Under the pieces are notes generated by a model. The model worked only from the letters and a program-made list of their open reading frames with translations. It searched no databases and had not been told where the DNA came from. This document shows positions 10,416-26,075 of a stretch of DNA of 64,000 nucleotides, piece by piece. The translations under genes were made by a program, and so were the position numbers. Source of the stretch: Spirochaetia bacterium (GTDB taxonomy: Bacteria > Spirochaetota > Spirochaetia > SZUA-6 > Bin103). How positions within the stretch are numbered: the stretch's first letter is position 1; each line of letters opens with the position of its first letter. The stretch covers positions 6,432,001 through 6,496,000 of the forward strand of contig CBDBDQ010000005.1 of the NCBI GenBank assembly GCA_965203905.1, written 5' to 3'.

Positions 10416-10425
10416 CCGCAACAGA

Positions 10426-11745
10426 TTACTGCAGGTGCTCGGACGGGTCGACATGCGCTCCGTTCAGAAAGATCGAAAAGTGCAGATGGTCCTCGCTACT
10501 GTACCCGGTGTTCCCCATCTCGCCTACCTGCTGCCCCTGCCGGATGCGATCGCCGACCGTCACCAGTGCCTTGTCCAGGTGGGCGTACAACGTCTGGAAG
10601 CCTTCGGCATGACGCAGAATGAGGTAGCGGCCGTAGTTGCCGTTGTACCCCGCCTTTGCCACGGTGCCGCTCATCGCCGCGACCACGGAAGTTCCGCGCT
10701 GGTTGGCGATGTCGATGCCGTTGTGGAACTTGCGCAAGCCGGTAAAGGGGTCGTTGCGATAGCCGTACCCGGATGTTATGGGTCCGCGGGCGGGCCTGAC
10801 GAACAGTTGGCCGAGCACGCGGTTGCGGGCGTTCTCACTGAGCCCCACGCCCGGTATCAACAGGCTCTGTCCGGGAGTGATCGGCGAGCTCTCCACTTCG
10901 TTGATGTCGAGCAGAGCTGCCAGGCTCACCCCGTGACGCATCGCAATGCGGCTCGGGTTGTCGCCACGCCGCACCACGTAGCGGATTCCCGACCGGTTCG
11001 GAATGATCAGTTCCCGTCCCGGCTTCAGATCACGCTCACGCTTGATGTCGTTGAAACTGATAATCGTGTCCAGAGTGATGCCGAACCGGTCCGCCAGTGC
11101 GGCCAGAGTGTCCCCGGCGCCTACCTGGTAGCGCTCGTAGCGCACCCCCGGCTGGGCGCCTGGCGGAGTGTCCGCGCCGTCGGCGTCGGCAACCGACCTT
11201 GCGGTGGCAGCGGCGCCGATACTCCTCAGGTTGTCGAGCAGCGCCTTCTGCAGCCCGCCGTCGCCCGGTCGCAGCACTGCCCGCGTGCCGGCGCTGCCCA
11301 GGCCGGCCACCGCAGGAGCGACGAACTGGACCACCGCCGTGGCGCTGAAGGCGGCCGCTACCAGCAGCAGCCCCACCGCGACGGGAACGGGTCGGATCCA
11401 ACGCCGGGCCAGCAGGCCGCAACTCGCGCGCACACGGTTGAGGGTCTCGAACACTGCCGACCACGGGATGGCACGCCACAGGCGGTCCGTCTGGCCGCGG
11501 GACCGCGGCGGGTCGAGCAAGGCCGGCAGCCCGGAACGCAGCGGCGGCAGCGGAATCGCCGCCGTTGCACTCACGCTGAGATCCTCCATCCGGACGCCGG
11601 CGCGCTTATGACGGCTCGGCTGCTGCCTGATGCGGCTCGGTTGTTGGTTGTGCAGTGCCGAACGGGTGCCGTGCCGGTGGCGACGCCCGACTCTGCGCCG
11701 TCCGACGCGCTGGCCCCGCAAACCGGCGTAGGTGGCGTCACGCAT
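10426..11745 (-). CDS. LysM(x2) + M23 family peptidoglycan endopeptidase
   Basis: YQVGAGDTL and YVVRRGDNP LysM repeats, FHNGIDI and HLHFSI. Start uncertain (11745 or about 11589). Confidence 0.9.
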   Translation of the reverse strand: MRDATYAGLRGQRVGRRRVGRRHRHGTRSALHNQQPSRIRQQPSRHKRAGVRMEDLSVSATAAIPLPPLRSGLPALLDPPRSRGQTDRLWRAIPWSAVFETLNRVRASCGLLARRWIRPVPVAVGLLLVAAAFSATAVVQFVAPAVAGLGSAGTRAVLRPGDGGLQKALLDNLRSIGAAATARSVADADGADTPPGAQPGVRYERYQVGAGDTLAALADRFGITLDTIISFNDIKRERDLKPGRELIIPNRSGIRYVVRRGDNPSRIAMRHGVSLAALLDINEVESSPITPGQSLLIPGVGLSENARNRVLGQLFVRPARGPITSGYGYRNDPFTGLRKFHNGIDIANQRGTSVVAAMSGTVAKAGYNGNYGRYLILRHAEGFQTLYAHLDKALVTVGDRIRQGQQVGEMGNTGYSSEDHLHFSIFLNGAHVDPSEHLQ

Positions 11746-11754
11746 TCATTCTGC

Positions 11755-11782
11755 ATATCGACAACTCGTGCGCCGGTCATTA
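11755..11782 (-). promoter_or_regulatory. Candidate sigma28 (FliA/SigD) promoter upstream of the LysM-M23 pair
   Basis: Minus strand TAAT-N16-GTCGATAT versus consensus TAAA-N15/16-GCCGATAW, two mismatches. Confidence 0.4.
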
Positions 11783-12250
11783 CGTCCGAGTGGCTGGCTT
11801 GGTCGCCGTGCCGGGATCGGGCCGGTGCGGCACCAGACCGCGGTCGGCCGCCAGGTTGAGGATCAGCTCCACCTCGCCCGGGCTGGTAGCGAGGCGGTCA
11901 GCGATCACGGCGCTGGAGAATCCGAGGCCCCGTAGCCGCATCACCTGAGCCTCCCGCTCCCCGGCGCCACCGCAAAGGGCAGGCGCCGCCGCATGGCGCT
12001 GTTCCGGAACACTCCGCGACGCCCGTCGATCGGCCTCGCGCAGCGATTCGTCCAGACGCCGGATTCGATCTTCCAGCAGGGTGACGTTACGCTCCGCGGT
12101 GGCGTTCATCTCGGCTGTCAATTCGGCCACCCGAGAGCACAGCGCAGGCGCTTGGTCGAACCCGCGAAGTCTACGATCGAGATATCGTCGCAGCACCAGA
12201 AACAACACCGCAAGCCCGACAAGCTGCACCGCAACGAGGGCTAAGACCAC
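11780..12250 (-). CDS. Membrane-anchored coiled-coil protein with C-terminal HTH-like segment, downstream of fliA
   Basis: N-terminal TM, coiled coil (ELTAEMNATAERNVTLLEDRIRRL), and C-terminal GFSSAVIADRLATSPGEVELIL. Confidence 0.6.
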   Translation of the reverse strand: MVLALVAVQLVGLAVLFLVLRRYLDRRLRGFDQAPALCSRVAELTAEMNATAERNVTLLEDRIRRLDESLREADRRASRSVPEQRHAAAPALCGGAGEREAQVMRLRGLGFSSAVIADRLATSPGEVELILNLAADRGLVPHRPDPGTATKPATRT

Positions 12251-12260
12251 GCGCTAGCGC

Positions 12261-13073
12261 TCAAGTGATGCCACGTTTGAGGTTGGTCAGCTTGGCTCGC
12301 AGCCGGATGATCGCCTTGGTGTGAAGCTGCGACACGCGGGACTCGGTGACCTCCAGCACCTCGCCAATCTCGCGCAGTGTCAGCTCCTCGTAGTAATACA
12401 GCACGAGCACCCGTTGTTCCTTTTCCGGAAGCTCCTTGAGGGCCTCCAACATGACCCGCTTGATCTCATCCTTCTCTACGATGGTGTCGGGATTCAAGCT
12501 CGCCGGAGACTCCACGCTCTCCGCGATCGAGATGCGATCACTGTCATCGCCGCTGTGCCACAAGTCATTCAACGACATCACCGCGGTGCTGCTGATCTTC
12601 AGCAGCAACTGCTGAAATTCCTTCAGCGGCAGATTCATCTCGCGGGCCAGCTCGGCATCGGTCGCAGCGCGTCCCAGAGTAGCCTCCAGCTGGCGGACGG
12701 TATCCTCCACTTCGCGGGCTTTCTGGCGAACCGAGCGGGGCACCCAGTCATTGCTGCGCAGTTCGTCGAAAATCGCCCCGCGAATACGGGTCACGGCGTA
12801 GGTCTTGAACTTGACGTGCTTGGTGGGGTCGAACTTCTCGATGGCGTCGAACAGTCCGAACACGCCATATCCGACCAGGTCATCGAACTCCACGCTGCCG
12901 GGCATGCCCACCGCTACCTTTCCGGCCACGTACTTGACCAGCGGGGCATACTGTCGCACGAAGTAGTCACGGATTGCTATATCTTTATTAGCCCTATAAT
13001 TGTTCCACATTTCCTGTTCTTCGTCCTGGCTCAGCGGAGCGGTCGTCCTGCGCTCTTGGATACTAGTCGACAT
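12261..13073 (-). CDS. fliA: RNA polymerase sigma factor FliA/WhiG (sigma28)
   Basis: YAPLVKYVA, FKTYAVTRIRGAIFDELRSNDWVPRSVR, LYYYEELTLREIGEVLEVTESRVSQLH. Confidence 0.95.
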   Translation of the reverse strand: MSTSIQERRTTAPLSQDEEQEMWNNYRANKDIAIRDYFVRQYAPLVKYVAGKVAVGMPGSVEFDDLVGYGVFGLFDAIEKFDPTKHVKFKTYAVTRIRGAIFDELRSNDWVPRSVRQKAREVEDTVRQLEATLGRAATDAELAREMNLPLKEFQQLLLKISSTAVMSLNDLWHSGDDSDRISIAESVESPASLNPDTIVEKDEIKRVMLEALKELPEKEQRVLVLYYYEELTLREIGEVLEVTESRVSQLHTKAIIRLRAKLTNLKRGIT

Positions 13074-13254
13074 GGCGCACTTCTACCTGCCTCGCAGCGG
13101 CGTCAACCAGCGGCGTCCAGCCGTGGCAAAGCGACCACCGAACCGAGGGCCGAGGATATGCCCCTGCTCCGAAGCGCCTCCGGACCATAACGAATTGTGA
13201 CACATGGCAGTGAACATGATGTTGCAACACTTGGTGCCCAACCTTACCGCAAAC

Positions 13255-13284
13255 AGGGTAGATGACATTTCCCCGCAAGGTCAA
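13255..13284 (-). promoter_or_regulatory. Candidate sigma70 promoter for fliA, in the gap where flhG usually sits
   Basis: Minus strand TTGACC-N18-TACCCT, with palindrome TGTTGCAACA at 13220-13229 just downstream. Confidence 0.45.
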
Positions 13285-13328
13285 CATCCTGGCCCTCCTT
13301 GGCTGCAAAATTCTGAGCGAAATTGGCG

Positions 13329-14603
13329 TCATGCGGTCACCCGAGAGGCTTCCTCGGAACGCCACGAGGAAGCGGCCACCGAATTCTGTGTGGCTCCGGT
13401 ACTGGCGCCGAATTGCTCCTCCAGCAACCTGCGATCGAGACGAAACCCATCCAGGCTCAGGAGCAAACGCAGGGCCGATGCCGGCGCGATGTCCTGCGGT
13501 ACCACTTGCCCATCGCAACAGTAGGAAAGCGGTTTCCGGACGGCTCCGAGGACCGACAGCAGATTTCCAATGGTGGCCGTCTCGTCGAGCTTGGTAACGA
13601 TTACACCATCGTACGCAAACGGCTCGAATTGACGCATGATCTCCTCCAGGTCGGCGTACTTCGTGGTCGCGCTTACCACCAGCTGAGTGGTGCCGTGGCG
13701 GCCCACGGCGTCGAGCAACGAACGTATCTCTGCCAAGTGCGTATAGTTGCCTGGACTGCGCCCCACGGTGTCAACGAAAATCACCTCGGCGTCCTGCCCC
13801 AGCGCGATGGCCTTCTTCAGCTCGTCGGCAGTTTCCGCCGCCGTAACCGGGATTCGCATGATCTCGCCGTAGGTCTCGATCTGCTGGCGTGCGCCGATGC
13901 GGTAGTTGTCGATGGTCACGATGCGCACCCGGCAATCCGGCGACTCGGCGCTGCCGCCGATCGCGTGCAGTGCCGCCAGCTTGGCGATGGTCGTCGTCTT
14001 GCCCACGCCGGTGGGTCCAACCACGGTGCAGATGCGCGGTCCGGCGGCAGCGCCGACAGCCTCCGCCAGCGGGGCGGCCAGCCGCACCTCGCGGCCGATC
14101 TGGCACGCCACGTACTGATGCACCGCGGGCAGATCATCCAGTTTCGACAACGGGAACTCCGCCCGCACCTGCTCGATCAGCCGCCGCCGCACGTGCGCGG
14201 CGAAGTCGTTGCGCAGCAGCAACGCGTCGAGAGCGTCCAGTTGCGGATGCCCGGTCTGGCGGGGGGCGATCGCGGCTCCTTCGGGGAGCGACTCATCCAG
14301 ACGGGAGCGCAGTGCGGCGACCTCGTCCGCCAGCCGTTGCAGCCCGGTGCCGGACGCCGCACGATGCAGGATCTTGCGCTTTTCGCCGTCCAGGTCGGTC
14401 ACTTCGGGAGTTCCGTGCTCCGGCGTCGACGGTTCCACGAAACCGGTGATCTCCACACCGTCGCGGGCGAACAGCCCCAGCACACCACCCATCCGTACCG
14501 GACGATGGGAGTGAATACGGGCCTCGGGTCCATACAACCGCTTCATGGTCGCCAGGGCTTCGCGGGGTGTCGCACCCTGAATCGTGAAGTACTCCATCGG
14601 CAA
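13329..14603 (-). CDS. flhF: Flagellar biosynthesis SRP-family GTPase FlhF
   Basis: [33 protein letters not shown] and GQVVPQDI. Confidence 0.95.
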   Translation of the reverse strand: MPMEYFTIQGATPREALATMKRLYGPEARIHSHRPVRMGGVLGLFARDGVEITGFVEPSTPEHGTPEVTDLDGEKRKILHRAASGTGLQRLADEVAALRSRLDESLPEGAAIAPRQTGHPQLDALDALLLRNDFAAHVRRRLIEQVRAEFPLSKLDDLPAVHQYVACQIGREVRLAAPLAEAVGAAAGPRICTVVGPTGVGKTTTIAKLAALHAIGGSAESPDCRVRIVTIDNYRIGARQQIETYGEIMRIPVTAAETADELKKAIALGQDAEVIFVDTVGRSPGNYTHLAEIRSLLDAVGRHGTTQLVVSATTKYADLEEIMRQFEPFAYDGVIVTKLDETATIGNLLSVLGAVRKPLSYCCDGQVVPQDIAPASALRLLLSLDGFRLDRRLLEEQFGASTGATQNSVAASSWRSEEASRVTA

Positions 14604-14605
14604 CC

Positions 14606-16591
14606 TCAGCGGCCGTCTCCCAGCCGCACCTCGGCAACCGACTGCAAGGCGACCTCAGGCGCCACCTCGGTAGTTGCCAGACACACCAGATGGGGGAGCT
14701 CCCGGCGGGTGGTTGCGCGTACCCGGACGCGGGCCTCGGAGGAACTCAGTACCGCGGGCCGGACTCCCTGTCGCGAGGCCCGCGCGAGGGTCCCGGACAG
14801 CGCCTCGATCCAGCGCCGCCGCGCCCCCGCTTCCATGCCGTGCGCCGCGTCAGCGCCGGCCAGAAGCTGCCGTTCGCACTCCGGTGCGAGGGTGATCACG
14901 CGCAGCACTCCGTCGCTGCCGGCATGCTGCAGGCTGATCTGGCGGGCCAGGGTGCGCCGTACCTGTTGCACCAGGAAGGCTGGGTCGCGGTTTGCGGACG
15001 CCCAATCTGCCAGCGTCTCCAGAATCGCCGGCAAGTCACGGATCGCTACCTGCTCCGCCAGCAGTCCCTGCAGCACGCGCCGGATTTCGCCGATCGACAA
15101 CACAGCGGTCACTTCTTCCACGGTAGTGGGATAATCCGCGCGCAGGCGGTCCAGCAGCGACCGCACCTGGTCGCGTCCCAACAGCTCCGCGGCGTGTCCA
15201 CGCAACAGCGCGCCGAGCCGGGCAACCAGAGCGTCGTTACTTCCGATCCGCCCGCGGCCCCGGCCCGCCTCGATGCCACGGATCTTCAGCAGATACTCCG
15301 ACGGCGCCAACTGCAGGTTGTCGCAAACCCGAACGTGCGGCACCGGGACGCCCCACTCCTGAGCCATCTGCGCGCGCAGGCGGGCGATGCGATCGAGCAA
15401 GTCGCCACCTGACTGGCCCTCGGCCATCGGCACCAGGGCGAGGCCCAGCTCCAGGCGCAGCGGCTCCGGAGGCGCCCCCGCCGCGGCGCCGGCGCCGTCG
15501 GCGCGCGCGGCGTACGCCGTGGCGGCCGCGCCCGCCACGGCGTACGGTTCGCCGGCGCCGGAATCCGCCTCACCTCCGGCGGCAGCCTGGGTCGCGCGCT
15601 CACCGGGTCGCGCCCGAGCCACGGCGTAGCCCAGCGCCGCGACTGCCGCCGCCAGCGGCAGCAACAGCAGCGGCGGGAACCCCGGCAGCAGCGCCAACAC
15701 CGCCAGGAACGCTCCGGTGATGTAGAAGGGGCGATCGTAGAACGAGAACTGGCGGGCCAGGTCGCGGCCGAACGAAACGCCGGAGATCGCTCGTGTGACG
15801 ACGATGCCGGTAGCGGTTGAGATCAGCAGCGCCGGAAGCTGGGTCACCAGACCGTCGCCGATGGTGAGGGTGGCATAGGTCTGCGCCGCCGCGGCCAGGG
15901 ACTCGCCATGTACGCTCACCCCCATGATCAGGCCGCCCGCGAGATTGACCAGGGTGATGATGATGGCGACGCGGACGCTGCCCGAGACGAACTTGGAAGC
16001 ACCATCCATGGCGCCGTAGAAGTTGCTCTGCCGCTGCAGCTCCTGCTTGCGCTGCTGAGCCTGAACCTCGGTGAGCAGGCCGGCGTGATACTCCGCGTCG
16101 ATCGCCATCTGCCGGCCCGGCAGGGCATCCAGGGTGAATCGGGCCGCTACCTCCGCCACCCGCGTCGAGCCCTTGGTAATGACGACGAACTGTACCGCGA
16201 TGATTATGGTGAAGATGACGAGACCGATCAGGTAGCCGGCGACGCCGGACGCCCCTACCACGAAACTGCCGAATGCACGCACCACGCGCCCGTCGAAGGC
16301 CGCTCCCTGCGCCAGGATGAGGCGGGTCGAGGACACGTTGAGGGCCAGGCCGAAGACCGTGGCCAGCAGCAGCAGGGTGGGAAACACCGTGAACTCCAGG
16401 GTGTCGCGGGCGTACAGCACGATGAGAATCACCAGCAGGCTGAGGCAGATGTTGAGCAGCATGAACAGATCGAGCAGCACCCCCGGCAAGGGGATGAGCA
16501 GCATCAGGATCGCCACGCACACGAACACCGCCACCAGAACGTCGCCGCGCTGGCGCCACCGCTCCCCGACACCGTGCCTCACGTCGGCCAT
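14606..16591 (-). CDS. flhA: Flagellar export gate protein FlhA with internal in-frame deletion in the cytoplasmic domain
   Basis: FHIPEP region RVAEVAARFTLDALPGRQMAIDA...FYGAMDGASKFV and IGDGLVTQLPALLISTATG. ATG 16591 with GGAGG RBS. Confidence 0.93.
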   Translation of the reverse strand: MADVRHGVGERWRQRGDVLVAVFVCVAILMLLIPLPGVLLDLFMLLNICLSLLVILIVLYARDTLEFTVFPTLLLLATVFGLALNVSSTRLILAQGAAFDGRVVRAFGSFVVGASGVAGYLIGLVIFTIIIAVQFVVITKGSTRVAEVAARFTLDALPGRQMAIDAEYHAGLLTEVQAQQRKQELQRQSNFYGAMDGASKFVSGSVRVAIIITLVNLAGGLIMGVSVHGESLAAAAQTYATLTIGDGLVTQLPALLISTATGIVVTRAISGVSFGRDLARQFSFYDRPFYITGAFLAVLALLPGFPPLLLLPLAAAVAALGYAVARARPGERATQAAAGGEADSGAGEPYAVAGAAATAYAARADGAGAAAGAPPEPLRLELGLALVPMAEGQSGGDLLDRIARLRAQMAQEWGVPVPHVRVCDNLQLAPSEYLLKIRGIEAGRGRGRIGSNDALVARLGALLRGHAAELLGRDQVRSLLDRLRADYPTTVEEVTAVLSIGEIRRVLQGLLAEQVAIRDLPAILETLADWASANRDPAFLVQQVRRTLARQISLQHAGSDGVLRVITLAPECERQLLAGADAAHGMEAGARRRWIEALSGTLARASRQGVRPAVLSSSEARVRVRATTRRELPHLVCLATTEVAPEVALQSVAEVRLGDGR

Positions 16592-17727
16592 GCAGCCTCC
16601 GTGCCACCGGTGTGGCGCACTGCCGCCAGAAGCCTGGCCGCCGGCTGGTAGAACGGTTCCGGAATCGGATCCCCGACGGCGACCTCCCGCCACACCGCTT
16701 CCGCCAGCGTTCGGTCCTCCACCACGGCTACGCCGTTGGCCGCGGCCAGCGCTCCGATCCGCTGCGCGGCGGTCGCCATCCCCTTGGCTACCACCACCGG
16801 TGCGCGCATGGTCGTGCCGTCCCAGCGCAGCGCCACCGCGCGTCGTTCACCGTGGGCAATCACCACGTCGGCCGCCGCCACCTGAGCGCCCATGGTGCGG
16901 CGCAGCAGCTCGCGCATGCGGCCCCGCAGCCGATCCCGGACCGCCGGGTCGCCCTCCTGGCGGCGGCGTTCGTCGCGTACCTCCCGCGGTGACATCCGCA
17001 ACCGCAGCCGATGCCGATAGCGCCGGAACAGGTAGTCGACCAGGGCCAGCGCCAGCAGCGCGACCGCCGTCTGGGCGCCGCAACGCAGGGCCGCGCGTGC
17101 CAGCACGGCGCCGGCCACGGCCAGCGACGTGCCGGCCAGCGTCTCCAGCACGGTGCCGATGGTGGACACGGCAGCGGCGCCGACGACCACTACCTTGAGC
17201 AGTTCCTTGACCAGGCTGAAGACCGCCTCTGCCGAGAGCGCGCGCTGCCGCAAGCGCCTCCAGCGCGGCACGATACGGCTCAGGTCGGGCACCACGGGGC
17301 GCACGGCGACTCGCCGTCCACCCTGCACCAGGTTTCCCAACAAGGCGCCCGCCACGCCGACCGCCGCCACCGGCAGCGACAGCCGGGCGACATAGCTGAA
17401 CGCCGCCGGCGCAATCGCGGCCGGCTCCGGAACCTGCGCGGTTCCGATTGCGGCCAGGAAGTGGCGTACCATCGCGCCGGTGCTGGCGATCAGCGAGGAG
17501 CCGAGCAGCGCCAGGGCGGTGACTCCGCAGAGCAGCACGAGCGCTGCCGTCAGCTCGGGAGAGTGGAACCCCTGTCCGGTCTCCCGCGCCGTGCGCATGC
17601 GCAGTGCGCTGGGTGGCTCGGTGCGGATCTCGTCAGCCTCCGCGAACCATTGCAGGTGCACATGGGCATAGCCCGCGGCGAACGCGCCCGCAACGGCCGT
17701 TGCGGCGGTGGAGCAGCCGGCGCTCAC
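16579..17727 (-). CDS. flhB: Flagellar export switch protein FlhB, lacking the NPTH motif
   Basis: HLQWFAEADEIRTEPP, four TM segments, LRMSPREVRDERRRQEGDP, APVVVAKG, GDPIPEPFYQ. GTG start overlaps the fliR stop. Confidence 0.9.
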   Translation of the reverse strand: MSAGCSTAATAVAGAFAAGYAHVHLQWFAEADEIRTEPPSALRMRTARETGQGFHSPELTAALVLLCGVTALALLGSSLIASTGAMVRHFLAAIGTAQVPEPAAIAPAAFSYVARLSLPVAAVGVAGALLGNLVQGGRRVAVRPVVPDLSRIVPRWRRLRQRALSAEAVFSLVKELLKVVVVGAAAVSTIGTVLETLAGTSLAVAGAVLARAALRCGAQTAVALLALALVDYLFRRYRHRLRLRMSPREVRDERRRQEGDPAVRDRLRGRMRELLRRTMGAQVAAADVVIAHGERRAVALRWDGTTMRAPVVVAKGMATAAQRIGALAAANGVAVVEDRTLAEAVWREVAVGDPIPEPFYQPAARLLAAVRHTGGTEAAWPT

Positions 17728-18581
17728 GGTGCCCCCACCTGCGGCACCGAGCCGCCCGGCGGCAGTGTCCGCGCTGCGGCGCCCAACTCCGCGAGGAGCC
17801 GGCGCAGTTCCACGAAGGCGCCATCGATCACCGCCGCCGCCGCATCGAGCAGCAGCGGCAGGGTGAGCAGCAGGAGCACCAGTCCTGCACCCAGCGAGAC
17901 GGGCAGCCCCAGCATCAGCAGATTCATCTGCGGCGCTGCCTTGGCCAGCAGGGCGAGCGCGATCGATACCAGCAGCAAGGCGCCGAAGATCGGCAGCGCG
18001 ATGGTCAGGGCGGTGCTGAACAGCCGGGCCAGACTGCCGGCTGCGCGCTGCAGCAGCAGCCCTGCGCCGCGCAGGGCACCGGCCTCCAGGCTGATCACCA
18101 GATCGGCCGCGCGCAAGGCTTGAAACGAGCCCGCGACGCCCACCAGCAGCAGCCGGTGCAGCCCGCCGACCGAGAGGAACACCAGTACCGCCAGCAGTGA
18201 GAACACCTGGCTCAACAGGGGTGACCGATGGCCTGACAGCGGATCGAACAGCTCCGCGACGCCGAAGCCGACCGACAGCGATATGAACTGCCCGGCCAGG
18301 CGCAGCGCGGCGAAAGCCAGATACACCAGAAAGCCGAGCAGGGCACCGAGCAGAGCCTCGCCCAGCAGCAACAACCCGTACTGCATGCCCGATGGCGGCA
18401 GCGGATAGCCCGCGGCCGCTACGCCGGGCAGCGCGATCAGAGCGATGAACACGGCCAGACCGATCTTTCCCACCTGCGGAATCGCGCGCGACGAGAGCAG
18501 CGGAGCTACCTGGATCATGGCCAGCACCCGCGCCAGCACCAGGAGTCCCACCCCCAGGTCGTCGAGCAGGCCGCGGATCAC
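17724..18581 (-). CDS. fliR: Flagellar export gate protein FliR
   Basis: AGQFISLSVGFGVAELFDP and LLAKAAPQMNLLMLGLP. Confidence 0.93.
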   Translation of the reverse strand: MIRGLLDDLGVGLLVLARVLAMIQVAPLLSSRAIPQVGKIGLAVFIALIALPGVAAAGYPLPPSGMQYGLLLLGEALLGALLGFLVYLAFAALRLAGQFISLSVGFGVAELFDPLSGHRSPLLSQVFSLLAVLVFLSVGGLHRLLLVGVAGSFQALRAADLVISLEAGALRGAGLLLQRAAGSLARLFSTALTIALPIFGALLLVSIALALLAKAAPQMNLLMLGLPVSLGAGLVLLLLTLPLLLDAAAAVIDGAFVELRRLLAELGAAARTLPPGGSVPQVGAP

Positions 18582-18624
18582 GCCACCCCACCGTTGGTGC
18601 CTCTGGCAATAGCAGCCGCGGCCG

Positions 18625-18894
18625 TCATCGCGCCATCCCCGGTATGCTCTCGAACAGGCGCCGGGTGAAGTCCAGCATGGAGCCGCCGAGCCAGGGGCCC
18701 AGCAGCAGTGCGGTTCCGAGGACGGCGAAGATCTTCGGCACGAACGTGAGCGTCTGCTCCTGGATCGACGTGGTGGCCTGCAGAACCGAGATCACGAGTC
18801 CCACCAGCACACTGATCAGCAGCATCGGACCCGCCATCAACAGTAGTTGCAGCACGGCGTCCCGTGCCAGGCCGGCTACCGCGCCCAGCGTCAC
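18625..18894 (-). CDS. fliQ: Flagellar export gate protein FliQ
   Basis: VGLVISVLQATTSIQEQTLTFVPKI. GTG 18894 with GGAGG RBS; 89 aa. Confidence 0.95.
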   Translation of the reverse strand: MTLGAVAGLARDAVLQLLLMAGPMLLISVLVGLVISVLQATTSIQEQTLTFVPKIFAVLGTALLLGPWLGGSMLDFTRRLFESIPGMAR

Positions 18895-18961
18895 GAACGG
18901 CCTCCGCGCAGCCGCCGGCGGCCACCGTGCACTGCCCCGGGTGCCGTTTTGCCGTGGCACC

Positions 18962-19750
18962 TCACCGGAAGCTCCCTATCACCTGCATGGTGAGCAGGTC
19001 CCAGCCGTCCACCAGGACGAACAGGATCAGTTTGAACGGCAGCGAGATGAGCACCGGGGGCAACACGATGATGCCCATCGAGATCAGGGTCGTCGCCACC
19101 ACCATGTCGATGATGACGAACGGGATGAAGATGAGAACGCCGATCTTGAACGCCACCGTCAGCTCATGGAGGATGAACGCAGGGATGAGAATGTAGGTCG
19201 GCACGTCGGCCCGGGTGTTCGGCTTGGGCAGCTCACGCATGCGCATGAACAGACGGATGTTGTCGGCGTCGTCGCCAAGCTGGCGGAACATGAATTCGCG
19301 CACCGGCACTTCCGCGCGCTGCAGCAGCTGGGTGCTGCTCAGCTCGCCGCGGGTAAACGGCTGCAGCGCGTCGCGATTGATCGCCTCGAACGTCGGCCAC
19401 ATGATGAACGCGGTAAGGAACAGGGCGACGCCCATCAGCACCTGGTTGGGCGGCATCTCCTGCAGCGACAACGCTCGCTTGACGAAGTGGAACACGATCG
19501 CCAGGCGCAGAAACGAGGTGGTCAGGATCATGATCGAGGGTGCCAGGGAAAGCACGGCCAGGAGCACCAGGAGCTGCAGGGACAGCGCCAGTTCCTGATT
19601 CGACTGCGCGTCGCGCAGAGTCAGATCCAGAAACGGAATGCCGGGCGCGGAGACGGCCTCCGGCGCCACCGACTGAGCCGCGGCCGGCAGCGGTCCGCAC
19701 AGCGCTGCGGCCAGCAGCGCCGTGGCGATCAACAGGCTAGTCCGCGGCAC
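18962..19750 (-). CDS. fliP: Flagellar export gate protein FliP
   Basis: Signal peptide, LSLAPSIMILTTSFLR, PPNQVL, LIPAFILHEL, ISLPFKLILFVLVDGW. Confidence 0.96.
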   Translation of the reverse strand: MPRTSLLIATALLAAALCGPLPAAAQSVAPEAVSAPGIPFLDLTLRDAQSNQELALSLQLLVLLAVLSLAPSIMILTTSFLRLAIVFHFVKRALSLQEMPPNQVLMGVALFLTAFIMWPTFEAINRDALQPFTRGELSSTQLLQRAEVPVREFMFRQLGDDADNIRLFMRMRELPKPNTRADVPTYILIPAFILHELTVAFKIGVLIFIPFVIIDMVVATTLISMGIIVLPPVLISLPFKLILFVLVDGWDLLTMQVIGSFR

Positions 19751-20465
19751 CGACTTCCCCCGGTTGCCGCCGGCGGCGGAGGCGCTGCAGCCGCTCCTGC
19801 TGGCGCTGCAGGAAGTCGGCGGCAGCCGCGGTTGCGGCCGCCGCGCCCGATGCCGCGCCCGGTGCCGCGCCGGGTGCGGGACCGATGTCGGCCAGCAGAT
19901 CGGCAAAGCGGCCTCCCGCTGCGCGCGGCTGCGCGTGATTCGGTGTCAGCGCTTGGATGCTGTCCTGATCGGTTATCTGCGCGATGAGGTTGAGGGTCTG
20001 GTCCGTAGCACCGATCAGGTACACGCCGCCTCCCACCTGCACCAGGTGCAGGTGGCGGCTGCCACCGAGCGACCGGGAACCGAGCAGGGCGATGCGGTCA
20101 GCGTTGCCGACGCTGGCCCGGGAGCTGCGCCTGATGAGCCGGAACAGCAGGTAGATGGCGCCGAGCACCGCCGCGAGCACCGCGACCATACGCACGAAGT
20201 CACCGGTGGAGACCGCCGCCGGCACGGCCGGCACCGCACGGTTCTCCGCCGCCCGCGACAGTGGCGTCAGGTCCGCCGCCGTGCCGGACGCATCGGCTTC
20301 CTGGGCAGACGCGGCACCCACCACGCCCAGCCACGCCACGGCCAACAGCAGCGCCGTCGCAACAGGTAGGTATGTCCGCCGTGCACGCGTACGACGCGCG
20401 CCACGGTGTGCTGCAGTGTACAGGTTGTTCCCCTCCCAGGAACGTAGCCGAACCACGCTCATCAC
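19737..20465 (-). CDS. fliO: Flagellar biosynthesis protein FliO (FliZ in spirochaete nomenclature)
   Basis: Lies between fliN and fliP. TM segment followed by IALLGSRSLGGSRHLHLVQVGGGVYLIGATDQTLNLI. Start uncertain. Confidence 0.82.
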   Translation of the reverse strand: MMSVVRLRSWEGNNLYTAAHRGARRTRARRTYLPVATALLLAVAWLGVVGAASAQEADASGTAADLTPLSRAAENRAVPAVPAAVSTGDFVRMVAVLAAVLGAIYLLFRLIRRSSRASVGNADRIALLGSRSLGGSRHLHLVQVGGGVYLIGATDQTLNLIAQITDQDSIQALTPNHAQPRAAGGRFADLLADIGPAPGAAPGAASGAAAATAAAADFLQRQQERLQRLRRRRQPGEVGAAD

Positions 20466-20626
20466 CGTCTTGGCCCGTTGCGGTCCAATGGGCCGCCGGA
20501 CCGTCCGAACTTCCTGGCGCCGCGAACCGCCGCCTGCGGCGCCGCTTTTCGCTCAGCCTCTCCTTCCGCCGGGAGCACCGCCTGGCACCCAGGCTCTCCC
20601 CGCGCTGCGCTGCCCGACGCGTCGCA

Positions 20627-21004
20627 TCACGTTCCCCCGTCCTCGCGGAGTGCCATTGCAGGCTCCGCGCGGCCGACGATCTCCGTCACGCGCACGCCGA
20701 AGTTGTTGTCGATCACCACCACCTCGCCACGTGCTATCGGCTTGTGGTTCACCAGGATTGCGACCGGCTCGCCGGCGAGCTGGTCGAGTTCGATCACCGC
20801 CCCCGCGTTGATGTCGAGCACCTCGCGGATGGTTCGCGTGGTGCTGCCGAGCTCGACCGTCATGCGCAGATCCACGTCCATCAGCAGGCCGATGTCCGCC
20901 TGCTCCGAGGTTGCTGCCGAAGCCTGTTCGAAGTCGGGAAGCTGCACCGGCCGCACCTCGGTCGCGGCGGCGCCGGCGTCATGCAGGGCCCGGTCGGCGC
21001 TCAC
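20627..21004 (-). CDS. fliN: Flagellar C-ring protein FliN (short, SpoA domain only)
   Basis: IGLLMDVDLRMTVELG...LDQLAGEPV...IARGEVVVIDNNFGVRVTEI. GTG overlaps the fliM stop. Confidence 0.92.
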   Translation of the reverse strand: MSADRALHDAGAAATEVRPVQLPDFEQASAATSEQADIGLLMDVDLRMTVELGSTTRTIREVLDINAGAVIELDQLAGEPVAILVNHKPIARGEVVVIDNNFGVRVTEIVGRAEPAMALREDGGT

Positions 21005-22002
21005 GATACCGCCTCCGCCGGTTTCTCCAGCGGCTTCACCACCTGTACCGCGAAGCGCTTGCCGACCACTCCGGGAAGGCAGCGGAACTTGGGTTTGCCC
21101 GCCACCTTCAGGTATAGCTCGTCGCCCGGGCCACGGTCGTCGAGACGAATGAGGTCTCCCTTCTTCAGCCCCAGGACACGCGGCAACGGCAGCAGCGCGC
21201 TGCCGATCTCGGCGCTGATGGAGACCGGCACGCCCTGCAGCGCCTGGCGCACCGTCGCGTGACGCCCGGCCGCTCTCCGCGGCTCGCTTCCGAACGGGTG
21301 GTGAGGCGCGCCGCGGTCGCCAATCGACTTCAGGGTGAGGCAGGAGACGGCGAGCTGCAGCTCCCCCTCCACGCCGCCGATCCGGGTGCCGAACGCGACC
21401 CGCACCAGCATTCCTGCGGGAATCGACGCCGCCGCCGTCCGGTCGCGGCGCCGGCAGTACTCCAGCCGCGGCCGAATCGGGACCAGTGGCTGCCACGCCG
21501 ACTGCAGATCAGGAAGCAGGCTGGAGATACGGTTCTGCAACACCGACGCTTCGATCTCGCTCAGTTCGCGAGACGGCACGGTGGGCACGCCCTGGCCTCC
21601 GAGCAGGCGGTCGATCAGGGAATAGGCGAAGCGATGGTCGAGCGCAAGCACGGCGACGCCCGCCAGCGGGTCCAGCGCCACTGCGGCCAGCACCACGGCG
21701 CGCGCCAGCGCAGTGCGGAACTCCTCACCGCTGATCTGTGCCACGGAGTGAGGGACGATCTCGACCCGGGTGCGGGTCTGATTGGCGAGGGACTCGGCGG
21801 CCAGTGCGGCAAACGTCTCGTGCACGGTGGCGAGGGCGCCGACCTGGCGCTCGGAGAGACGGCCGGCGAACCCGAAGTCGTATGCGTCTGGCGTCATGCC
21901 ACTGACCGGCGACCCGGTACTTGCCGATAGCACGGCACTGCTGCTGGAGGCGGCGCAATCCAGCAGCGAGACATGACCGCGACGCGGGCCTGCATCAGCC
22001 AC
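21001..22002 (-). CDS. fliM: Flagellar C-ring protein FliM, lacking the N-terminal CheY-binding peptide
   Basis: YDF, VHETFA, IDRLLGGQG, RELSEIE and a C-terminal SpoA domain (LKKGDLIRL...KFRCLPG...AVQV). Start 22002 (GTG with RBS) or 21897. Confidence 0.88.
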   Translation of the reverse strand: MADAGPRRGHVSLLDCAASSSSAVLSASTGSPVSGMTPDAYDFGFAGRLSERQVGALATVHETFAALAAESLANQTRTRVEIVPHSVAQISGEEFRTALARAVVLAAVALDPLAGVAVLALDHRFAYSLIDRLLGGQGVPTVPSRELSEIEASVLQNRISSLLPDLQSAWQPLVPIRPRLEYCRRRDRTAAASIPAGMLVRVAFGTRIGGVEGELQLAVSCLTLKSIGDRGAPHHPFGSEPRRAAGRHATVRQALQGVPVSISAEIGSALLPLPRVLGLKKGDLIRLDDRGPGDELYLKVAGKPKFRCLPGVVGKRFAVQVVKPLEKPAEAVS

Positions 22003-22119
22003 GCGCTCCCTCCCATGTGACGACCGGGAATTCGCACCGCTCCAAGGGTGGGGAGCATGCGCGCCCGGTTCTCACCCCCGTCGCCCGCCGCGTGGGACGG
22101 GACGTCGGGGAAGACTCGC

Positions 22120-22148
22120 AGGTTACGGCAAAGCGAAAAAAGGTGCAA
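22120..22148 (-). promoter_or_regulatory. Candidate sigma70 promoter upstream of fliM
   Basis: Minus strand TTGCAC-N17-TAACCT. Confidence 0.5.
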
Positions 22149-22221
22149 CCGCTACGCCGCAACGGCGCACGGCGGCACCGGGAAGCCCACGGCGCGTGCC
22201 GACCGTAGCGTGGGCCGTCAG

Positions 22222-23898
22222 TTACTTCTCGACCAGCCACGAGCGCAGCGTTCGCGCAGCATCCGCAGGCCGCTCGCGTGCCAGCCTGGCCGCGTTCTGT
22301 TGCATCTGCGCCTTGCTTCGCAAATTGGGGGGTGAAGCCGCCCAGCCGCCGCGGGCGGCGGCGCTCAACCGTGCGGGATGCATGCCGGAGCGCTGCGCGG
22401 CGTGCGACCGCCGGTGCCGCGCCCACAACCAGGAACCGAACGCCGTCAACAACAGCGCCGCCGCCCCGGCAACCGCCAGCGGCAGCATCCGCAACAGCTC
22501 CGCCTCGCGCCGCAGCACGGCGTCCTCCTGCTGGAACTGCCGCATGCGGTCGAACTGCAGGTGCTCGACGGTAACCGAGTCGCCACGCTGCGGGTCCCAG
22601 CCGATGGCGTCCTGGATCAGCAGCGTAGCCTTGCGCAAATCGTCCTCGGAAACCGGCGTGTACTCGCGCTGCACGCTGCCGTCGGCATGCAGCTGGATCT
22701 GGCCGTCGGGCCGGAACGTGGTCCGCCACACGCCATCGAGTGCGACACTTACGGTGATCCGGTTGATCGCCCATGGGCTCTTCTCCGTAACCGTGTTGCG
22801 GCGGTTGACCACCTCGTTGCGGGACACCGAGCTGCGCTGGTACGCGCCCGCGCCGGGACCACTGCCGGCACCGGCCGCCACCGGCGCAGACTCCTGAGCG
22901 GTCACCGGCCGCGTCTCCTCCTCGCGTTGTTCCGAAATCGTAATGGAGGGGACCTTGACCGACTCGTCGCTCTCCGTGTGCGGATTGTCGGCCCGCATGG
23001 CGATTGGAAAGTGCTCTTCGGTCTGGGTGGTTTCGGCCGACAGATCGAGATCGATGTCGAGCCGTACGATCTGCACTCGATCGAGCGTGAAGATCTTGCC
23101 CAGAGCGGTAAGGATCTCTCGCTTGTAGCGTTGCTCCAGGTCGAACTTGGTATTGAGCTGGCGCTCCACCAGAGCCGCGCGGCCCTGTCCGGCAAGGTCT
23201 CCGACGTCATTCACCTGGACCCCGCGGGGATCCAGGATCACGATGTTTTCCGCCCGCAGGCCGGCGACGGCAAACTGCACCAGGCGCTGGATGCCGGCGA
23301 CCTTCTTACGATCCTCGAGGATATCGGAGCCCAGTCGCGGGGTGATGATGATCGACGCCGTAGTCGGGTTCTGATCCTCCGCGAACAGCTCGGTCTCGGG
23401 CACCACCAGGGTGACGTTGGCGGCCACGACGTCGTCCAGGGCGGTAATGTGCTGCTCCAGGTTGCGGGTCAGGGCGCGCTGCAGGTTGACGTTGCGCTCG
23501 AAGTCCGTCATCGAGAAACGGTCCACCTCGAAGACGGAAAAGGGATCGGTATGCGGCGGCATCAGGTCCTCACGAATCAGGATTGCGCGCAGCCGCCGCG
23601 CGTTCTCCTGATCGGCCACCAGGATGCGGTTGTCGGAGGCGATCTGGTATTCGGCGCTCTCCTGATCAAGCCGTGCCGCGATCCGCAGGAGGTCCTGCTG
23701 ATCGCCGATTGGGGCACCGATAAGGGCAACCATGTGCCTGCCGGCGGCGATGGGCCCATCGCCGCGAGAGGCGCCGAGCAGTGTCAATGCGATGATCGAA
23801 GTGACGACCAGCGCGCTCAGCGACAGTTTCTGAAGCTGACTCCAACGACCCCAGAGGCCGGCCGCCCGCTGCCTCAGGCGTGCCAGGAGTTCGTTCAT
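22222..23898 (-). CDS. fliF: Flagellar MS-ring protein FliF
   Basis: TDFERNVNLQRAL, ANVTLVVPETELF, TTASIIITP, IQDAIGWDPQRGDSVTV, C-terminal ARERPADAARTLRSWL. ATG 23898 with GGGAGG RBS. Confidence 0.94.
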   Translation of the reverse strand: MNELLARLRQRAAGLWGRWSQLQKLSLSALVVTSIIALTLLGASRGDGPIAAGRHMVALIGAPIGDQQDLLRIAARLDQESAEYQIASDNRILVADQENARRLRAILIREDLMPPHTDPFSVFEVDRFSMTDFERNVNLQRALTRNLEQHITALDDVVAANVTLVVPETELFAEDQNPTTASIIITPRLGSDILEDRKKVAGIQRLVQFAVAGLRAENIVILDPRGVQVNDVGDLAGQGRAALVERQLNTKFDLEQRYKREILTALGKIFTLDRVQIVRLDIDLDLSAETTQTEEHFPIAMRADNPHTESDESVKVPSITISEQREEETRPVTAQESAPVAAGAGSGPGAGAYQRSSVSRNEVVNRRNTVTEKSPWAINRITVSVALDGVWRTTFRPDGQIQLHADGSVQREYTPVSEDDLRKATLLIQDAIGWDPQRGDSVTVEHLQFDRMRQFQQEDAVLRREAELLRMLPLAVAGAAALLLTAFGSWLWARHRRSHAAQRSGMHPARLSAAARGGWAASPPNLRSKAQMQQNAARLARERPADAARTLRSWLVEK

Positions 23899-23980
23899 GT
23901 TCCCCCTCCCAAGCTGCACGACGGCGCCGCGAGACCCGGCGGGTAACCGGCTCCCGTTGCGCCTGATTCGCGCATCGTCT

Positions 23981-24010
23981 GTTATGTCCGTGGAGGTCGC
24001 TCTTTGTCAA
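23981..24010 (-). promoter_or_regulatory. Candidate sigma70 promoter upstream of fliF
   Basis: Minus strand perfect TTGACA, N18, then CATAAC; an AT-rich UP-like tract lies at 24021-24032. Confidence 0.55.
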
Positions 24011-24144
24011 CACGCAACGGAAAAAAATAATTGGACCCTGTGTCGCATTTGCCGAAATCCCGGGCCCTTGTCGTGATCTCCATGCGGGCGCGGTGGACGA
24101 CCTCCTGCCGCCACCGCGACGGCGCCCCGGTACGACCGCGGATG

Positions 24145-25539
24145 CTACAGGATGTAGCGGGTAAGGTCGCGGTCTTCGATGATCTTGGTGAGCCGCTCGT
24201 TCACGTAGTCGGGAGTGATGGTGACGCTCTGTCCCTGCAAATCCGGTGCGCTGAAGGAGAGCTCCTCCAACAGCAGCTCCATGATCGTGTGCAGGCGTCG
24301 GGCGCCGATATTCTCGGTGCTGCGATTCACCTCGGAGGCCAGCTCCGAGATCCGGTCAACTGCAGCCTCGGTGAACTTCAGCGTTACCTCCTCCGTGGCC
24401 AACAGCGCCGTGTACTGGGTGATCAATGCATTCCGCGGCTGCGTCAGGATGCGCTTGAAGTCGTCGCTTCCCAGGGCCGCGAGCTCCACTCGGATCGGGA
24501 AGCGCCCCTGCAGCTCGGGGATCAGATCCGCGGGCTTGCTCATGTGAAAGGCACCCGCGGCGATGAACAGGATGTGGGCCGTGTCGACGGTGCCCCACTT
24601 GGTGGTAACGGTGCTCCCCTCCACGATTGGCAGGATGTCGCGCTGCACCCCCTCGCGCGACACGTCGGCGCCGCCACGGCTGTCCTTCGCCGCTACCTTG
24701 TCGATCTCGTCGAGGAATATGATGCCCATCTGTTCGACCCGCTCGATGGCCAGTTCCGAAACCCGGTCCTTGTCCACCAGGCGATCGATCTCGTCCGCCA
24801 TCAACACCTGCCGCGCGCGCCGCACCGGCACCTTCTTCTTCTTCTTGCGACCGCCGAACAGGTTGCCGAGGTTGCCCAGGTTGATATCCATCTCCTCGAA
24901 GCTCTGTCCCGAGAAGATCTCGATCGCCGGACCGCTGCTGTCGGACACGTTCACCTCCACCAGCTTGTCATCGAGCTGTCCCGCGCGCAGCCGCTCGCGA
25001 AACTTGGTCACGGTCCCGGTCTCCGGCGCGATCGCCGCCGATTCGGCTCGCTTCACCACGGACGCCTCGGGCGCCGGTGGCGCCGGCGGCGGCTTCGGTT
25101 TTGGCTGGCGCAGGCCCGGCAGCAGCAACTCGAGCAGCTGTTCTTCGACGCGGGTCTCGGCCTCCTCCTGCACCCCGGCCTGCAACTCCCCCTTGACCAT
25201 GGAGATGGCCACCGAGGTCAGGTCCCGCACCATGGACTCGACGTCACGACCCACATAGCCCACCTCGGTGTACTTGGTGGCCTCCACCTTGACGAAGGGA
25301 GCCCGGCACAGTTTCGCCAAGCGGCGCGCGATCTCGGTCTTGCCCACCCCCGTGGGGCCGATCAGAATGATGTTCTTCGGCGCTACCTCGTCGCGCAGAT
25401 CGGGCGGCAGCTTGCGCCGCCGCAGGCGATTGCGCAGCGCAATCGCGACCGCTTTCTTGGCCTTCTCCTGCCCGACGATGTAGCGATCCAGTTCCTGCAC
25501 GATCTCCTTGGGACTGAGCTGGTCCAGATCGACGCTCAT
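24145..25539 (-). CDS. hslU: ATP-dependent protease ATPase subunit HslU
   Basis: [57 protein letters not shown]. Confidence 0.98.
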
Positions 25540-26075
25540 GACAGCTCCTCGACGACGATTTCCGAATTGGTATAGACGCAGATGTCGGCGGCGATCCGCA
25601 TCGAGCGCATCGCGATGTCGCGCGCGCTCAGTGCGGAACTCTCCAGATACGCACGCGCCGCGGCCAATGCGTAGTTGCCCCCGGAGCCGATGGCAATGAC
25701 CCCGTGGTCCGGCTCCAGCACATCACCGTTGCCGGAGATGAGCAAGGTCTGGCGCCGGTCCGCTGCCAGCAGCAGCGCCTCCAGCCGGCGCAGAATGCGG
25801 TCCGAACGCCAATCGCGAGCCAGCTCCACGCAGGCGCGGGTCAGGTCACCGCCGTATTCCTTGACCTTGCCCTCGAAGCGGTCGAACAGGGTGAACGCGT
25901 CGGCCGTACCGCCGGCGAAGCCGACGAGGATGGAGCCGTCGGCAACGGTGCGTACCTTGCGGGCGCTGCCCTTCAATATGGTGGCATCCAGGGTCACCTG
26001 GCCATCACCGGCCATTGCCACCGCCGCGTCGCGGCGAACGGCTACGATAGTGGTTCCGTGCATGCTGCTGTTCAT
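25536..26075 (-). CDS. hslV: ATP-dependent protease peptidase subunit HslV
   Basis: HGTTIVAV (catalytic Thr), [34 protein letters not shown]. Confidence 0.97.

Follow-up and report, generated by a model that had tools for sequence, protein, structure and literature searches.

The 64,000-nucleotide stretch of DNA analysed here as the window (positions 6432001-6496000 of contig C5 of the spirochaete genome G000; feature coordinates are window positions unless prefixed C5) carries a pruned flagellar operon, in which the genes of a complete flagellar-type export gate are retained together with those of the MS ring, two C-ring proteins, the GTPase FlhF and sigma28. G000 consists of 7,986,778 bases in 5 contigs, with 66% G+C and no N; completeness is 98.71% and contamination 7.9%. 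According to Pfam and NCBIfam profiles, by which the genes of the window were named, the minus-strand order is xer-hslV-hslU-(246 bp)-fliF-(219 bp)-fliM-fliN-fliO-fliP-fliQ-fliR-flhB-flhA-flhF-(255 bp)-fliA, the gaps being counted from the hslU stop to the fliF ATG, from the fliF stop to the longest fliM start, and from the flhF stop to the fliA ATG. Every frame is open, and the profiles bear out the order, strand and frames given in an earlier note made from the letters of this stretch. Assembly gaps at the junctions are not indicated: besides the lack of N, identical junctions are present in relatives assembled independently, and two are spanned by contigs of other runs (12656-13730 with 0 differences, 21812-22674 with 1 difference).

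The individual genes, all on the minus strand, were also compared with those of G031, a flagellated genome of the same order used as the operon reference. The fliF gene (22222..23898) encodes a full-length MS-ring protein with YscJ_FliF and YscJ_FliF_C domains (TIGR00206, 265.9 against a cut-off of 129.75), 43% identical to G031 FliF across 575 residues by tblastn. It is followed by fliM (21001..22002; FliM and FliMN_C domains; TIGR01397, 182.7, under the cut-off of 219.6) and fliN (20627..~21025; about 130 amino acids, the C-terminal FliMN_C domain only; TIGR02480, 95.4 against 84.05), and then by the gate genes fliO (19737..20465; Pfam FliO, 48.4 bits), fliP (18962..19906; Pfam FliP; TIGR01103, 263.7 against 217.45), fliQ (18625..18960; Bac_export_3; TIGR01402, 99.1 against 88.9), fliR (17724..18581; Bac_export_1; TIGR01400, 180 against 168.6), flhB (16579..~17700, the start codon being approximate; Bac_export_2; TIGR00328, 243.8, under 349.25) and flhA (14606..16591, inside an open reading frame reaching 16693; FHIPEP in two stretches; TIGR01398, 638, under 772). 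The flhF gene (13329..14603; SRP54 domain; 48% identity to G031 FlhF) encodes a GTPase of the signal recognition particle type and has no flhG partner; the best NCBIfam models for its product are FlhF models, yet the scores lie under their cut-offs. The sigma28 gene fliA (12261..13073; Sigma70 regions 2, 3 and 4; 77% identity to G031 FliA) scores 414.3 against 343 with the WhiG equivalog NF004935 and 294 against 189.6 with TIGR02479. On the other side of fliF lie hslU (24145..25539; AAA_2 and AAA domains; 66% identity to G031 HslU) and hslV (25536..~26090, the longest open reading frame extending to 26615; Proteasome domain; 73% identity to G031 HslV). Thus FliA, FliF, FliN, FliP, FliQ and FliR pass their NCBIfam equivalog cut-offs, and FlhA, FlhB, FliM and FlhF fall under theirs. 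The flagellar-type gate set of FliP, FliQ, FliR, FlhB and FlhA plus FliO is complete, and for every gate protein (FliP, FliQ, FliR, FlhB, FlhA) the flagellar NCBIfam model outscores the injectisome (Sct) model.

Three blocks missing from the operon

The G031 operon reads xer-hslV-hslU-flgB-flgC-fliE-fliF-fliG-fliH-fliI-fliJ-...-fliK-flgD-flgE-...-fliL-fliM-fliN-fliO-P-Q-R-flhB-flhA-flhF-flhG-X-fliA, with FliK, FlgD, FliL and the ParA-like FlhG named by Pfam, FlgC, FlgE and FliG by profile hits inside frames, and the remaining genes, the motA and motB positions included, by position and size. G000 shares with this canonical spirochaete flgB operon the xer-hslV-hslU and fliA flanks and the order of the kept genes, but about 17 genes are absent from its operon. 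Because G031 carries the full operon between hslU and fliA, three blocks have been cleanly excised in G000: flgB-flgC-fliE, fliG through fliL, and flhG plus one gene. The corresponding excision sites are the hslU-fliF spacer (23899..24144, minus strand), where hslU is directly followed by flgB in flagellated relatives, the fliF-fliM spacer (22003..22221, minus strand) and the flhF-fliA spacer (13074..13328, minus strand).

The earlier note described these gaps as stretches of about 220-255 bp without gene remnants. The lengths of 219, 246 and 255 bp agree, and tblastn with the G031 proteins detected no remnant of the excised genes at E <= 1e-3, but two of the gaps are not featureless, each holding a conserved -35-like box. 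The hslU-fliF spacer has a TTGACA-N18-CATAAC box at 23981-24010, conserved in alignment with G001, G004, G006, G007 and G010, and the flhF-fliA spacer has a conserved TTGACC-N18-TACCCT box at 13255-13284, where a ATGTTGAC core is invariant in G000 and 9 aligned genus spacers; the TTGAC core is kept in all genus spacers aligned. These boxes upstream of fliF and fliA are likely, but unproven, promoters. The fliF-fliM spacer has a hairpin followed by a T-run at 22144-22161; terminator-like sites as a class number 3 against 5.6 expected from shuffled sequence, which is no excess.

Genome-wide absences and a relocated fliG

The profiles used to search for the missing genes, several of them short (31-46 positions), all gave matches in the expected control genomes. 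In G000 there were 0 matches to the rod profile Flg_bb_rod, the rod/hook C-domain Flg_bbr_C, Flagellin_N, FliE, and the chemotaxis profiles CheW and MCPsignal. The FliI/YscN model TIGR01026 had 6 matches, which lie in ATPase or rho-like contexts and stay under its cut-off of 379.5, the highest score being 230.9, and the sole FliH match, of 20 bits, lies within an ATPase operon. Both MotA_ExbB matches are followed by an ExbD-family gene and a TonB/TolA-like open reading frame, and are thus attributed to ExbBD or TolQR systems rather than to a MotA/MotB stator. By tblastn, 15 of the 31 G031 operon proteins found no match in the whole of G000, one of the 15 being a mis-framed, uninformative FlhB query: the rod, hook, FlgD and FliK proteins were unmatched, as were those at the motA and motB positions (queries named by operon position only), while the matches of a FliI fragment were confined to paralogous ATPases and those of FlhG to ParA-like genes, at 26-27% identity. 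As for an injectisome, no SctN-type ATPase was found over cut-off and the Sct gate models were outscored by flagellar ones; no search was made for a secretin.

One missing gene lies elsewhere. A complete fliG, encoding the N, M and C domains, is located at G000:C5:6224405-6225586, 207 kb from the operon, among unrelated neighbours of the DUF1223 and CarboxypepD_reg families, a locus conserved in all 6 genus genomes compared. Its product is 53-54% identical to the operon FliG of G031, as against 29-36% to the fliG paralogues of flagellated relatives, and the EHPQT motif and the majority of the charged residues at its C-terminus are still present, though there is no stator. The earlier note is therefore sustained as to the absence of rod, hook, stator, export ATPase complex and FlhG, and as to FliG it holds for the operon but not for the genome. 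Simple fragmentation of the operon, with the missing genes dispersed through the genome, is rejected, because the genome-wide search found only fliG at a second locus.

The flagellin and rod/hook C-domain profiles, and those for FlhA and FliG, were applied to 40 relatives, comprising 17 order-mates outside the family, 10 genomes of the same genus and 13 of a sister genus. Flagellin and the rod/hook C-domain were found in 17/17 order-mates outside the family, with 3-5 flagellin and 5 rod/hook matches each, but in only one of the 23 genomes of the same family (G002) and in none of the 13 of the sister genus. These counts bear on the idea that the organism is motile, with a flagellum whose rod, hook, filament and stator components have diverged beyond detection. 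That idea can draw on the general limits of profile searches, including the shortness noted above, yet the profiles succeeded in every order-mate; the kept G000 proteins are 35-77% identical to their G031 counterparts, so the lost ones should be detectable by tblastn; and the CheW and MCPsignal genes of chemotaxis are absent too. A hidden flagellum is scarcely credible on this evidence.

Modules lost from the retained proteins

Several of the retained proteins have themselves been shortened. In FlhA the transmembrane part is conserved, and the FHIPEP match breaks at about profile positions 403-455 in G000 and in 7 genus genomes that have both pieces. The cytoplasmic domain is short by about 50 residues, corresponding to residues 438-488 of a 697-residue FlhA (PDB 12dv_B), which we take to be subdomain D2. 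Late substrates bound to their chaperones dock at a site to which subdomain D2 contributes. In FlhB the NPTH autocleavage motif, which is present in G031, is replaced by HGER in G000, and the 7 aligned genus sequences have HGER, HGGR, DGRR, GGAR, DAAR or DPAR at this site. FliM is without the N-terminal CheY-binding peptide (LSQDEIDQLL in G031), TIGR01397 covering profile positions 35-319 only, and the CheY-binding N-terminus is likewise absent from FliN, which at about 130 amino acids contrasts with a FliY-like protein of 370 amino acids starting LSQDEIDALL in G031. That the kept proteins have lost motility-specific modules, as had been noticed from the sequence of the window, is thus upheld for FlhA, FlhB, FliM and FliN.

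The gate loop of FliP is altered as well: it reads MGIIVLPP in all 13 family sequences (10 of the genus, G000 included, and 3 of the sister genus), MGMIMLPP in 11/11 flagellated spirochaetes compared, and MGMVMVPP in a third lineage described below (G176 and G268), so that two methionines of the flagellated-type loop are replaced in the family. In one subclade of the genus (G001, G004, G006, G007) no separate fliN was found; there the FliM frame closes with a C-terminal domain resembling FliN, a sign that a deletion may have fused fliM with fliN.

Conservation and selection within the genus

FlhA (FHIPEP) was found in 17/17 order-mates outside the family, 9/10 genomes of the genus and 3/13 of the sister genus, and the FliG C-domain in 17/17, 10/10 and 0/13, respectively. 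Within the reach of their contigs, all nine genus genomes with FlhA show this pruned order and every frame is open, even though amino-acid identity drops to about 45-65%. In G003 and G008 the contig ends cut fliF off. In G005 the flagellar cluster and hslU are on different contigs, the cluster is rearranged, and there is no fliF in the 20 kb around flhA.

The ratio of nonsynonymous to synonymous substitution rates (dN/dS, or omega) was estimated across the genus under GY+F3X4, after removal of gapped columns and of orthologues below 40% in identity or 50% in coverage; fliN, whose query frame was too long to pass the coverage filter, is not included. Omega was 0.055 for fliA, 0.05 for fliQ, 0.08 for fliP, 0.09 for fliR, 0.11 for flhA, flhF and fliF, 0.18 for fliM, 0.20 for flhB and 0.21 for fliO, with control values of 0.046 for hslU, 0.056 for hslV, 0.12 for xer and 0.11-0.13 for the neighbouring M23 peptidase genes; within flhA it was 0.085 for the membrane part and 0.21 for the remaining cytoplasmic part. 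Since the genus trees are 2.3-8 substitutions per codon long, pairwise NG86 values were also computed at dS 0.09-0.76, giving dN/dS of 0.03-0.13 for fliA, 0.12-0.31 for flhA, flhF, fliP, fliQ, fliR and fliF, and 0.27-0.55 for flhB, fliO and fliM, with controls at 0.03-0.13 (hslUV) and 0.16-0.36 (xer and peptidases). Random decay of the kept genes, which the earlier note had doubted, is rejected: with open frames and omega far below 1 in nine genus members, purifying selection maintains them. The comparison of dN/dS with motile spirochaetes that the same note envisaged is informative within the genus, where selection is purifying and no frameshifts occur in the nine members, but not against the motile baseline, as the omega of 0.01-0.09 obtained for flagellated spirochaetes comes from saturated trees of 30-74 substitutions per codon and is not comparable. 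Contigs from one sponge metatranscriptome run, 92-96% identical, align on fliA, flhF, flhA, fliP, fliM/N and fliF and are a weak hint of expression, given that DNA carry-over is possible and that in the RNA run each of the 30 bins showed at least some depth.

Graded reduction in related lineages

The three sister-genus genomes with FlhA have a still shorter operon, hslU-fliF(450-483 aa)-fliO-P-Q-R-flhB(~261 aa, ending after the membrane part)-flhA-fliA, with no fliG, fliM, fliN or flhF, and with dN/dS of 0.09-0.71. In a phylum survey of a sample of 250 further genomes, each at least 85% complete, FHIPEP was found in 250/250 and flagellin in 248/250, the exceptions being G176 and G268, which belong to another family of the class, have 1.5-1.7 Mb and 48-50% G+C, and are also without the rod/hook domain. 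The G176 operon (C3:50000-69999) reads hslU-fliF(312 aa)-fliG-fliH-...-fliM/N-like-fliO-P-Q-R-flhB(238 aa, membrane part only)-flhA-flhF(short)-fliA-small membrane open reading frame, and G268 (contig C59) agrees with it from the fliM/N-like gene to fliA, with an flhB of 248 aa, its contig ending before the hslU-fliH part. All frames of the two operons are open despite saturated dS. This is an independently pruned operon in an unrelated family, with fliG and a fliH-like gene still in place. Common to all pruned lineages are FliF (at least the N-terminal part), FliO, FliP, FliQ, FliR, the membrane part of FlhB, FlhA and FliA.

The number of prunings depends partly on G002, a fragmentary genome assigned to the same genus, in which (contig C79) hslU is followed directly by flgB-flgC, and flagellin and rod genes are present; it appears to represent a flagellated lineage near the pruned genus. 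Trees of HslV and HslU combined group the G002 contig with the pruned genus to the exclusion of the sister genus (support 91 with 14 taxa, 92.1/94 with 40 taxa), a topology that would mean two losses within the family. The approximately unbiased (AU) test does not reject a single-loss topology that unites the pruned genus with its sister genus (p = 0.124), and the FliP loop MGIIV is common to both pruned genera of the family; FliP was not found in G002, a genome 81% complete. The independent prunings in the class therefore number at least two, possibly three.

The series has consequences for a reading in which FlhF, FliF, FliG and the C ring serve as a scaffold or landmark, that is, a polar or sub-polar organiser (for instance of pole identity, envelope growth or division), the gate being kept for ring assembly. 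Such a role would fit the retention of FlhF without FlhG, and that of a relocated FliG with its three domains and EHPQT motif but without a stator. It would also fit the constant neighbourhood of two LysM-M23 cell-wall peptidase genes (9375..11745, minus strand, identified by Pfam), which are conserved right neighbours of the cluster. These genes, however, occupy the same position in both genera and remain in place in genomes without any flagellar gene, and are not counted here among the flagellar parts. Moreover, in the sister genus and the third lineage the gate persists where FliG, FliM/N, FlhF and the FliF C-terminus are lost or shrunken, so that the shared element is the membrane gate and not the ring. 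An organiser built on the ring is accordingly considered unlikely.

Sigma28 and a FlgM-like protein

A FlgM-like protein of 95 aa is encoded at G000:C5:1825660-1825944 (plus strand); it scores 24.3-24.4 bits with PF04316, under the cut-off of 25. Among 41 genomes, 40 have a FliA orthologue and 39 an orthologue of the FlgM-like gene, the latter including 16/17 order-mates outside the family. The gate might be kept as a regulatory checkpoint that exports the anti-sigma factor FlgM and thereby frees sigma28 for a non-flagellar regulon, and both the presence of the FlgM-like protein and the conservation of FliA, the highest of any cluster gene (omega 0.055 and the 77% identity to G031 already mentioned), would be expected from it. 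Against this, all 13 sister-genus genomes have FliA and all 13 have the FlgM-like gene, 10 of them without FlhA, and at its N-terminus FlgM is conserved to the same degree whether or not a genome has the gate, a comparison that by itself favours neither side. The NPTH site of FlhB acts in the switch to late substrates such as FlgM, and with an FlhB that lacks it no such switch is expected; nor was a set of sigma28-type promoters found besides those of one insertion sequence (IS) family. Export of FlgM as the reason for keeping the gate is therefore improbable, decidedly more so than an organiser role. Because FliA and the FlgM-like gene are present where FlhA is not, sigma28 is retained independently of the gate and should not be reckoned among the parts of the platform, although the earlier note lists it with the remaining genes.

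Attempts to define a sigma28 regulon were unsuccessful. A scan of G000 for TAAA-N14-16-GCCGATA[AT] gave 8 matches, all in the same end of one IS family, and a looser pattern gave 3, about the number expected from base composition by our own estimate, so that no regulon is definable. Sigma28 control of flgM or of the cluster was likewise not supported, the boxes upstream of flgM, fliF and fliA being sigma70-like rather than sigma28-like. The 8 IS copies, each with a transposase of 406 aa whose start is preceded, at a distance of about 15 bases, by the perfect sigma28-type consensus TAAA-N16-GCCGATAA, lie on G000:C5 near 345086, 466283, 1397177, 2335303, 2393429, 4132531, 5867470 and 6846450, and are the only strict matches in the genome; belonging to one family, they amount to one event and could be due to chance.

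Neighbouring genes

The conserved left neighbour of the cluster is a xerC/D-type tyrosine recombinase gene (26072..27091, minus strand; Pfam Phage_integrase and SAM-like N domain), found in the same place in relatives. A pair of nearby xerC/D-like recombinase genes upstream of hslV (26135-27022 and 28275-29006, minus strand) was also seen in sister-genus loci. After fliA, genus-wide, comes orf156 (11780..12250, minus strand), which encodes a small protein with an N-terminal hydrophobic segment and weak DUF6115 matches; 4/4 orthologues scanned match DUF6115 weakly (E 1.5e-4 to 0.01, under cut-off), with weak likeness to DUF2802 too. In two flagellated order-mates, homologues of orf156 lie downstream of fliA at a distance of about 2.3 kb, and in G176 fliA is likewise followed by a small open reading frame of similar kind.

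A probable maintained inner-membrane complex, or a slow relic

The cluster is probably a selectively maintained and stably inherited remainder of a spirochaete flgB-type operon, with no flagellar genes for anything beyond the inner membrane, which would specify a filament-less complex. What the analysis establishes is which genes are present and which are absent from the whole genome, how far the kept genes are conserved and under purifying selection, which modules have gone, and that the pattern recurs in other lineages; the assembly, activity and cargo set out below are inferred. The encodable parts would be an MS ring of FliF; a cytoplasmic ring of FliM and FliN, with FliG from the second locus; an export gate of FliO, FliP, FliQ, FliR, FlhB and FlhA that would be driven by the proton motive force; the placement GTPase FlhF; and sigma28. 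The kept proteins have also shed parts for chemotaxis and substrate handling: FliM and FliN their CheY-binding peptides, FlhB its NPTH switching motif, and FlhA a single subdomain of its cytoplasmic ring. The cell may still assemble a filament-less, ATPase-independent inner-membrane complex, of which the useful part would be the membrane-embedded FliF-FliPQR-FlhB-FlhA core. Having no FliE and no rod, this core would open into the periplasm, and it would most likely move a cargo over the inner membrane or act as a membrane conduit or platform. An inner-membrane complex of this kind, with the membrane gate as the selected part, is the most defensible mechanism that the genes suggest. In reading the cluster as a secretion or membrane-conduit machine, the earlier note claims more about function than the evidence carries.

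Several observations weigh against this interpretation. FlhA is absent from 10 of the 13 sister-genus genomes, which makes the core dispensable in close relatives, and in the 3 of those 10 that were examined the locus reads simply hslU, about 300 bp, and fliA; the platform can thus be lost entirely. Within the genus, flhB, fliO and fliM are under looser constraint than hslUV, and FlhA of G009 and G010 retains only the N-terminal FHIPEP piece, most of the cytoplasmic domain having been lost. The whole FlhB cytoplasmic domain is lost in two other lineages, the sister genus and G176/G268. In Salmonella the cytoplasmic domains of FlhA and FlhB are both needed for flagellar protein export, and the losses in these domains therefore argue against canonical type III export. 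Finally, a standard sigma70 consensus scan did not call the conserved boxes of the spacers, its one promoter-like site being on the opposite strand.

Much of this could be accommodated if the cluster were a slow relic, having no present function and consisting of the last genes to be lost, perhaps because partial complexes are harmless or because of their position between the useful genes hslUV and fliA, in a single transcription context. The series grades from the full operon through the pruned genus and the three shorter sister-genus operons to the three hslU-fliA genomes; erosion is visible inside the genus in the C-terminal truncations of FlhA in G009 and G010 and in the fliM-fliN fusion of four genomes; and dN/dS of flhB, fliO and fliM reaches 0.4-0.55. 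A relic is nevertheless hard to reconcile with nine genus genomes that keep open frames at omega far below 1, within the range of neighbouring housekeeping genes, with the open frames of G176 and G268 at saturated dS, or with clean excisions that left spacers with conserved boxes. We hold a functionless relic to be a minor possibility, and prefer the maintained remainder.

A bolder and only tentative proposal is that the membrane heart of the apparatus (the FliF N-terminal part, FliOPQR, the FlhB transmembrane domain and FlhA) might function autonomously, without ATPase, rod, C ring or substrate-sorting domains, and be selected as such in sessile, probably invertebrate-associated spirochaetes. 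Such autonomy, if true, would explain why the same core survived each time motility was lost within one bacterial class, independently in at least two lineages and possibly in three. Candidate functions would be a periplasmic exporter driven by the proton motive force, or a membrane conduit or nanotube platform.

Comparison with other reduced flagellar systems

Reduced flagellar sets, for some of which a role apart from motility has been proposed, are known from several bacteria, to which the pruned spirochaete set is an addition. Buchnera aphidicola, non-motile, host-associated and without flagellin or motA/motB, has filament-less basal bodies and keeps fliE, the rod genes flgB, C, F and G, flgH and a partial hook (PMC8109811). 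G000 has no FliE, rod or hook genes, so that its structure cannot extend beyond the inner membrane, unlike that of Buchnera; its genome is also large (8 Mb) and not reduced, and its FlhA and FlhB have lost modules as well. In Lysobacter enzymogenes OH11, which is non-flagellated and without fliC, flhA, flhB and fliPQR are expressed and needed for non-flagellar secretion, an export that is FliI-dependent, the strain keeping FliI, FlgD and the rod, hook, and L and P ring genes (PMC7688988). The likeness lies in the keeping of flhA, flhB and fliPQR; G000 is without ATPase, rod and hook, and its set is a candidate for secretion at most.

The role of the FliOPQR-FlhB-FlhA set termed CORE in nanotubes is disputed. 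For Bacillus subtilis, nanotubes were reported to form with CORE in the absence of flgB-fliF, fliI or hag, and CORE without most flagellar or injectisome genes was listed for Myxococci, Chloracidobacterium and Succinatimonas; the accessible text of that paper names no spirochaete (PMC6456723). The set common to the three pruned spirochaete lineages equals CORE plus FliF, a likeness of gene content alone. Sphaerochaeta are non-motile spirochaetes reported to have lost all motility genes (PMC3372971). Periplasmic flagella have been given up in both cases, but G000 keeps a defined core under selection. A survey preprint finds the sets of Spirochaetota to be nearly complete and raises the question of how half a motor could be useful (10.1101/2024.12.05.626484). 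No pruned flagellar set in Spirochaetota was found described in the literature covered, outside which lay the supplementary tables of PMC6456723 and of that preprint.

A flagellar export gate without a flagellum bears on the origin of the injectisome, on the disputed nanotube platform and on the basal bodies of Buchnera. The relatives of G000 constitute a natural deletion series, from the full operon in flagellated relatives to ring and gate in the genus, gate and short FliF in part of the sister genus, and nothing in the rest. Together with the independent replicate, the series defines a minimal retained set of FliF, FliOPQR, the transmembrane part of FlhB, and FlhA, and shows which cytoplasmic parts become dispensable. 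These organisms and constructs provide a means of asking whether a rod-less, ATPase-less gate assembles, whether it conducts proteins or ions, and what sigma28 targets in a genome without flagellar genes for it to serve. For the Spirochaetota, loss of motility is not the all-or-nothing event that it appeared to be from Sphaerochaeta, and the core kept by G000 and its relatives suggests a role other than swimming.

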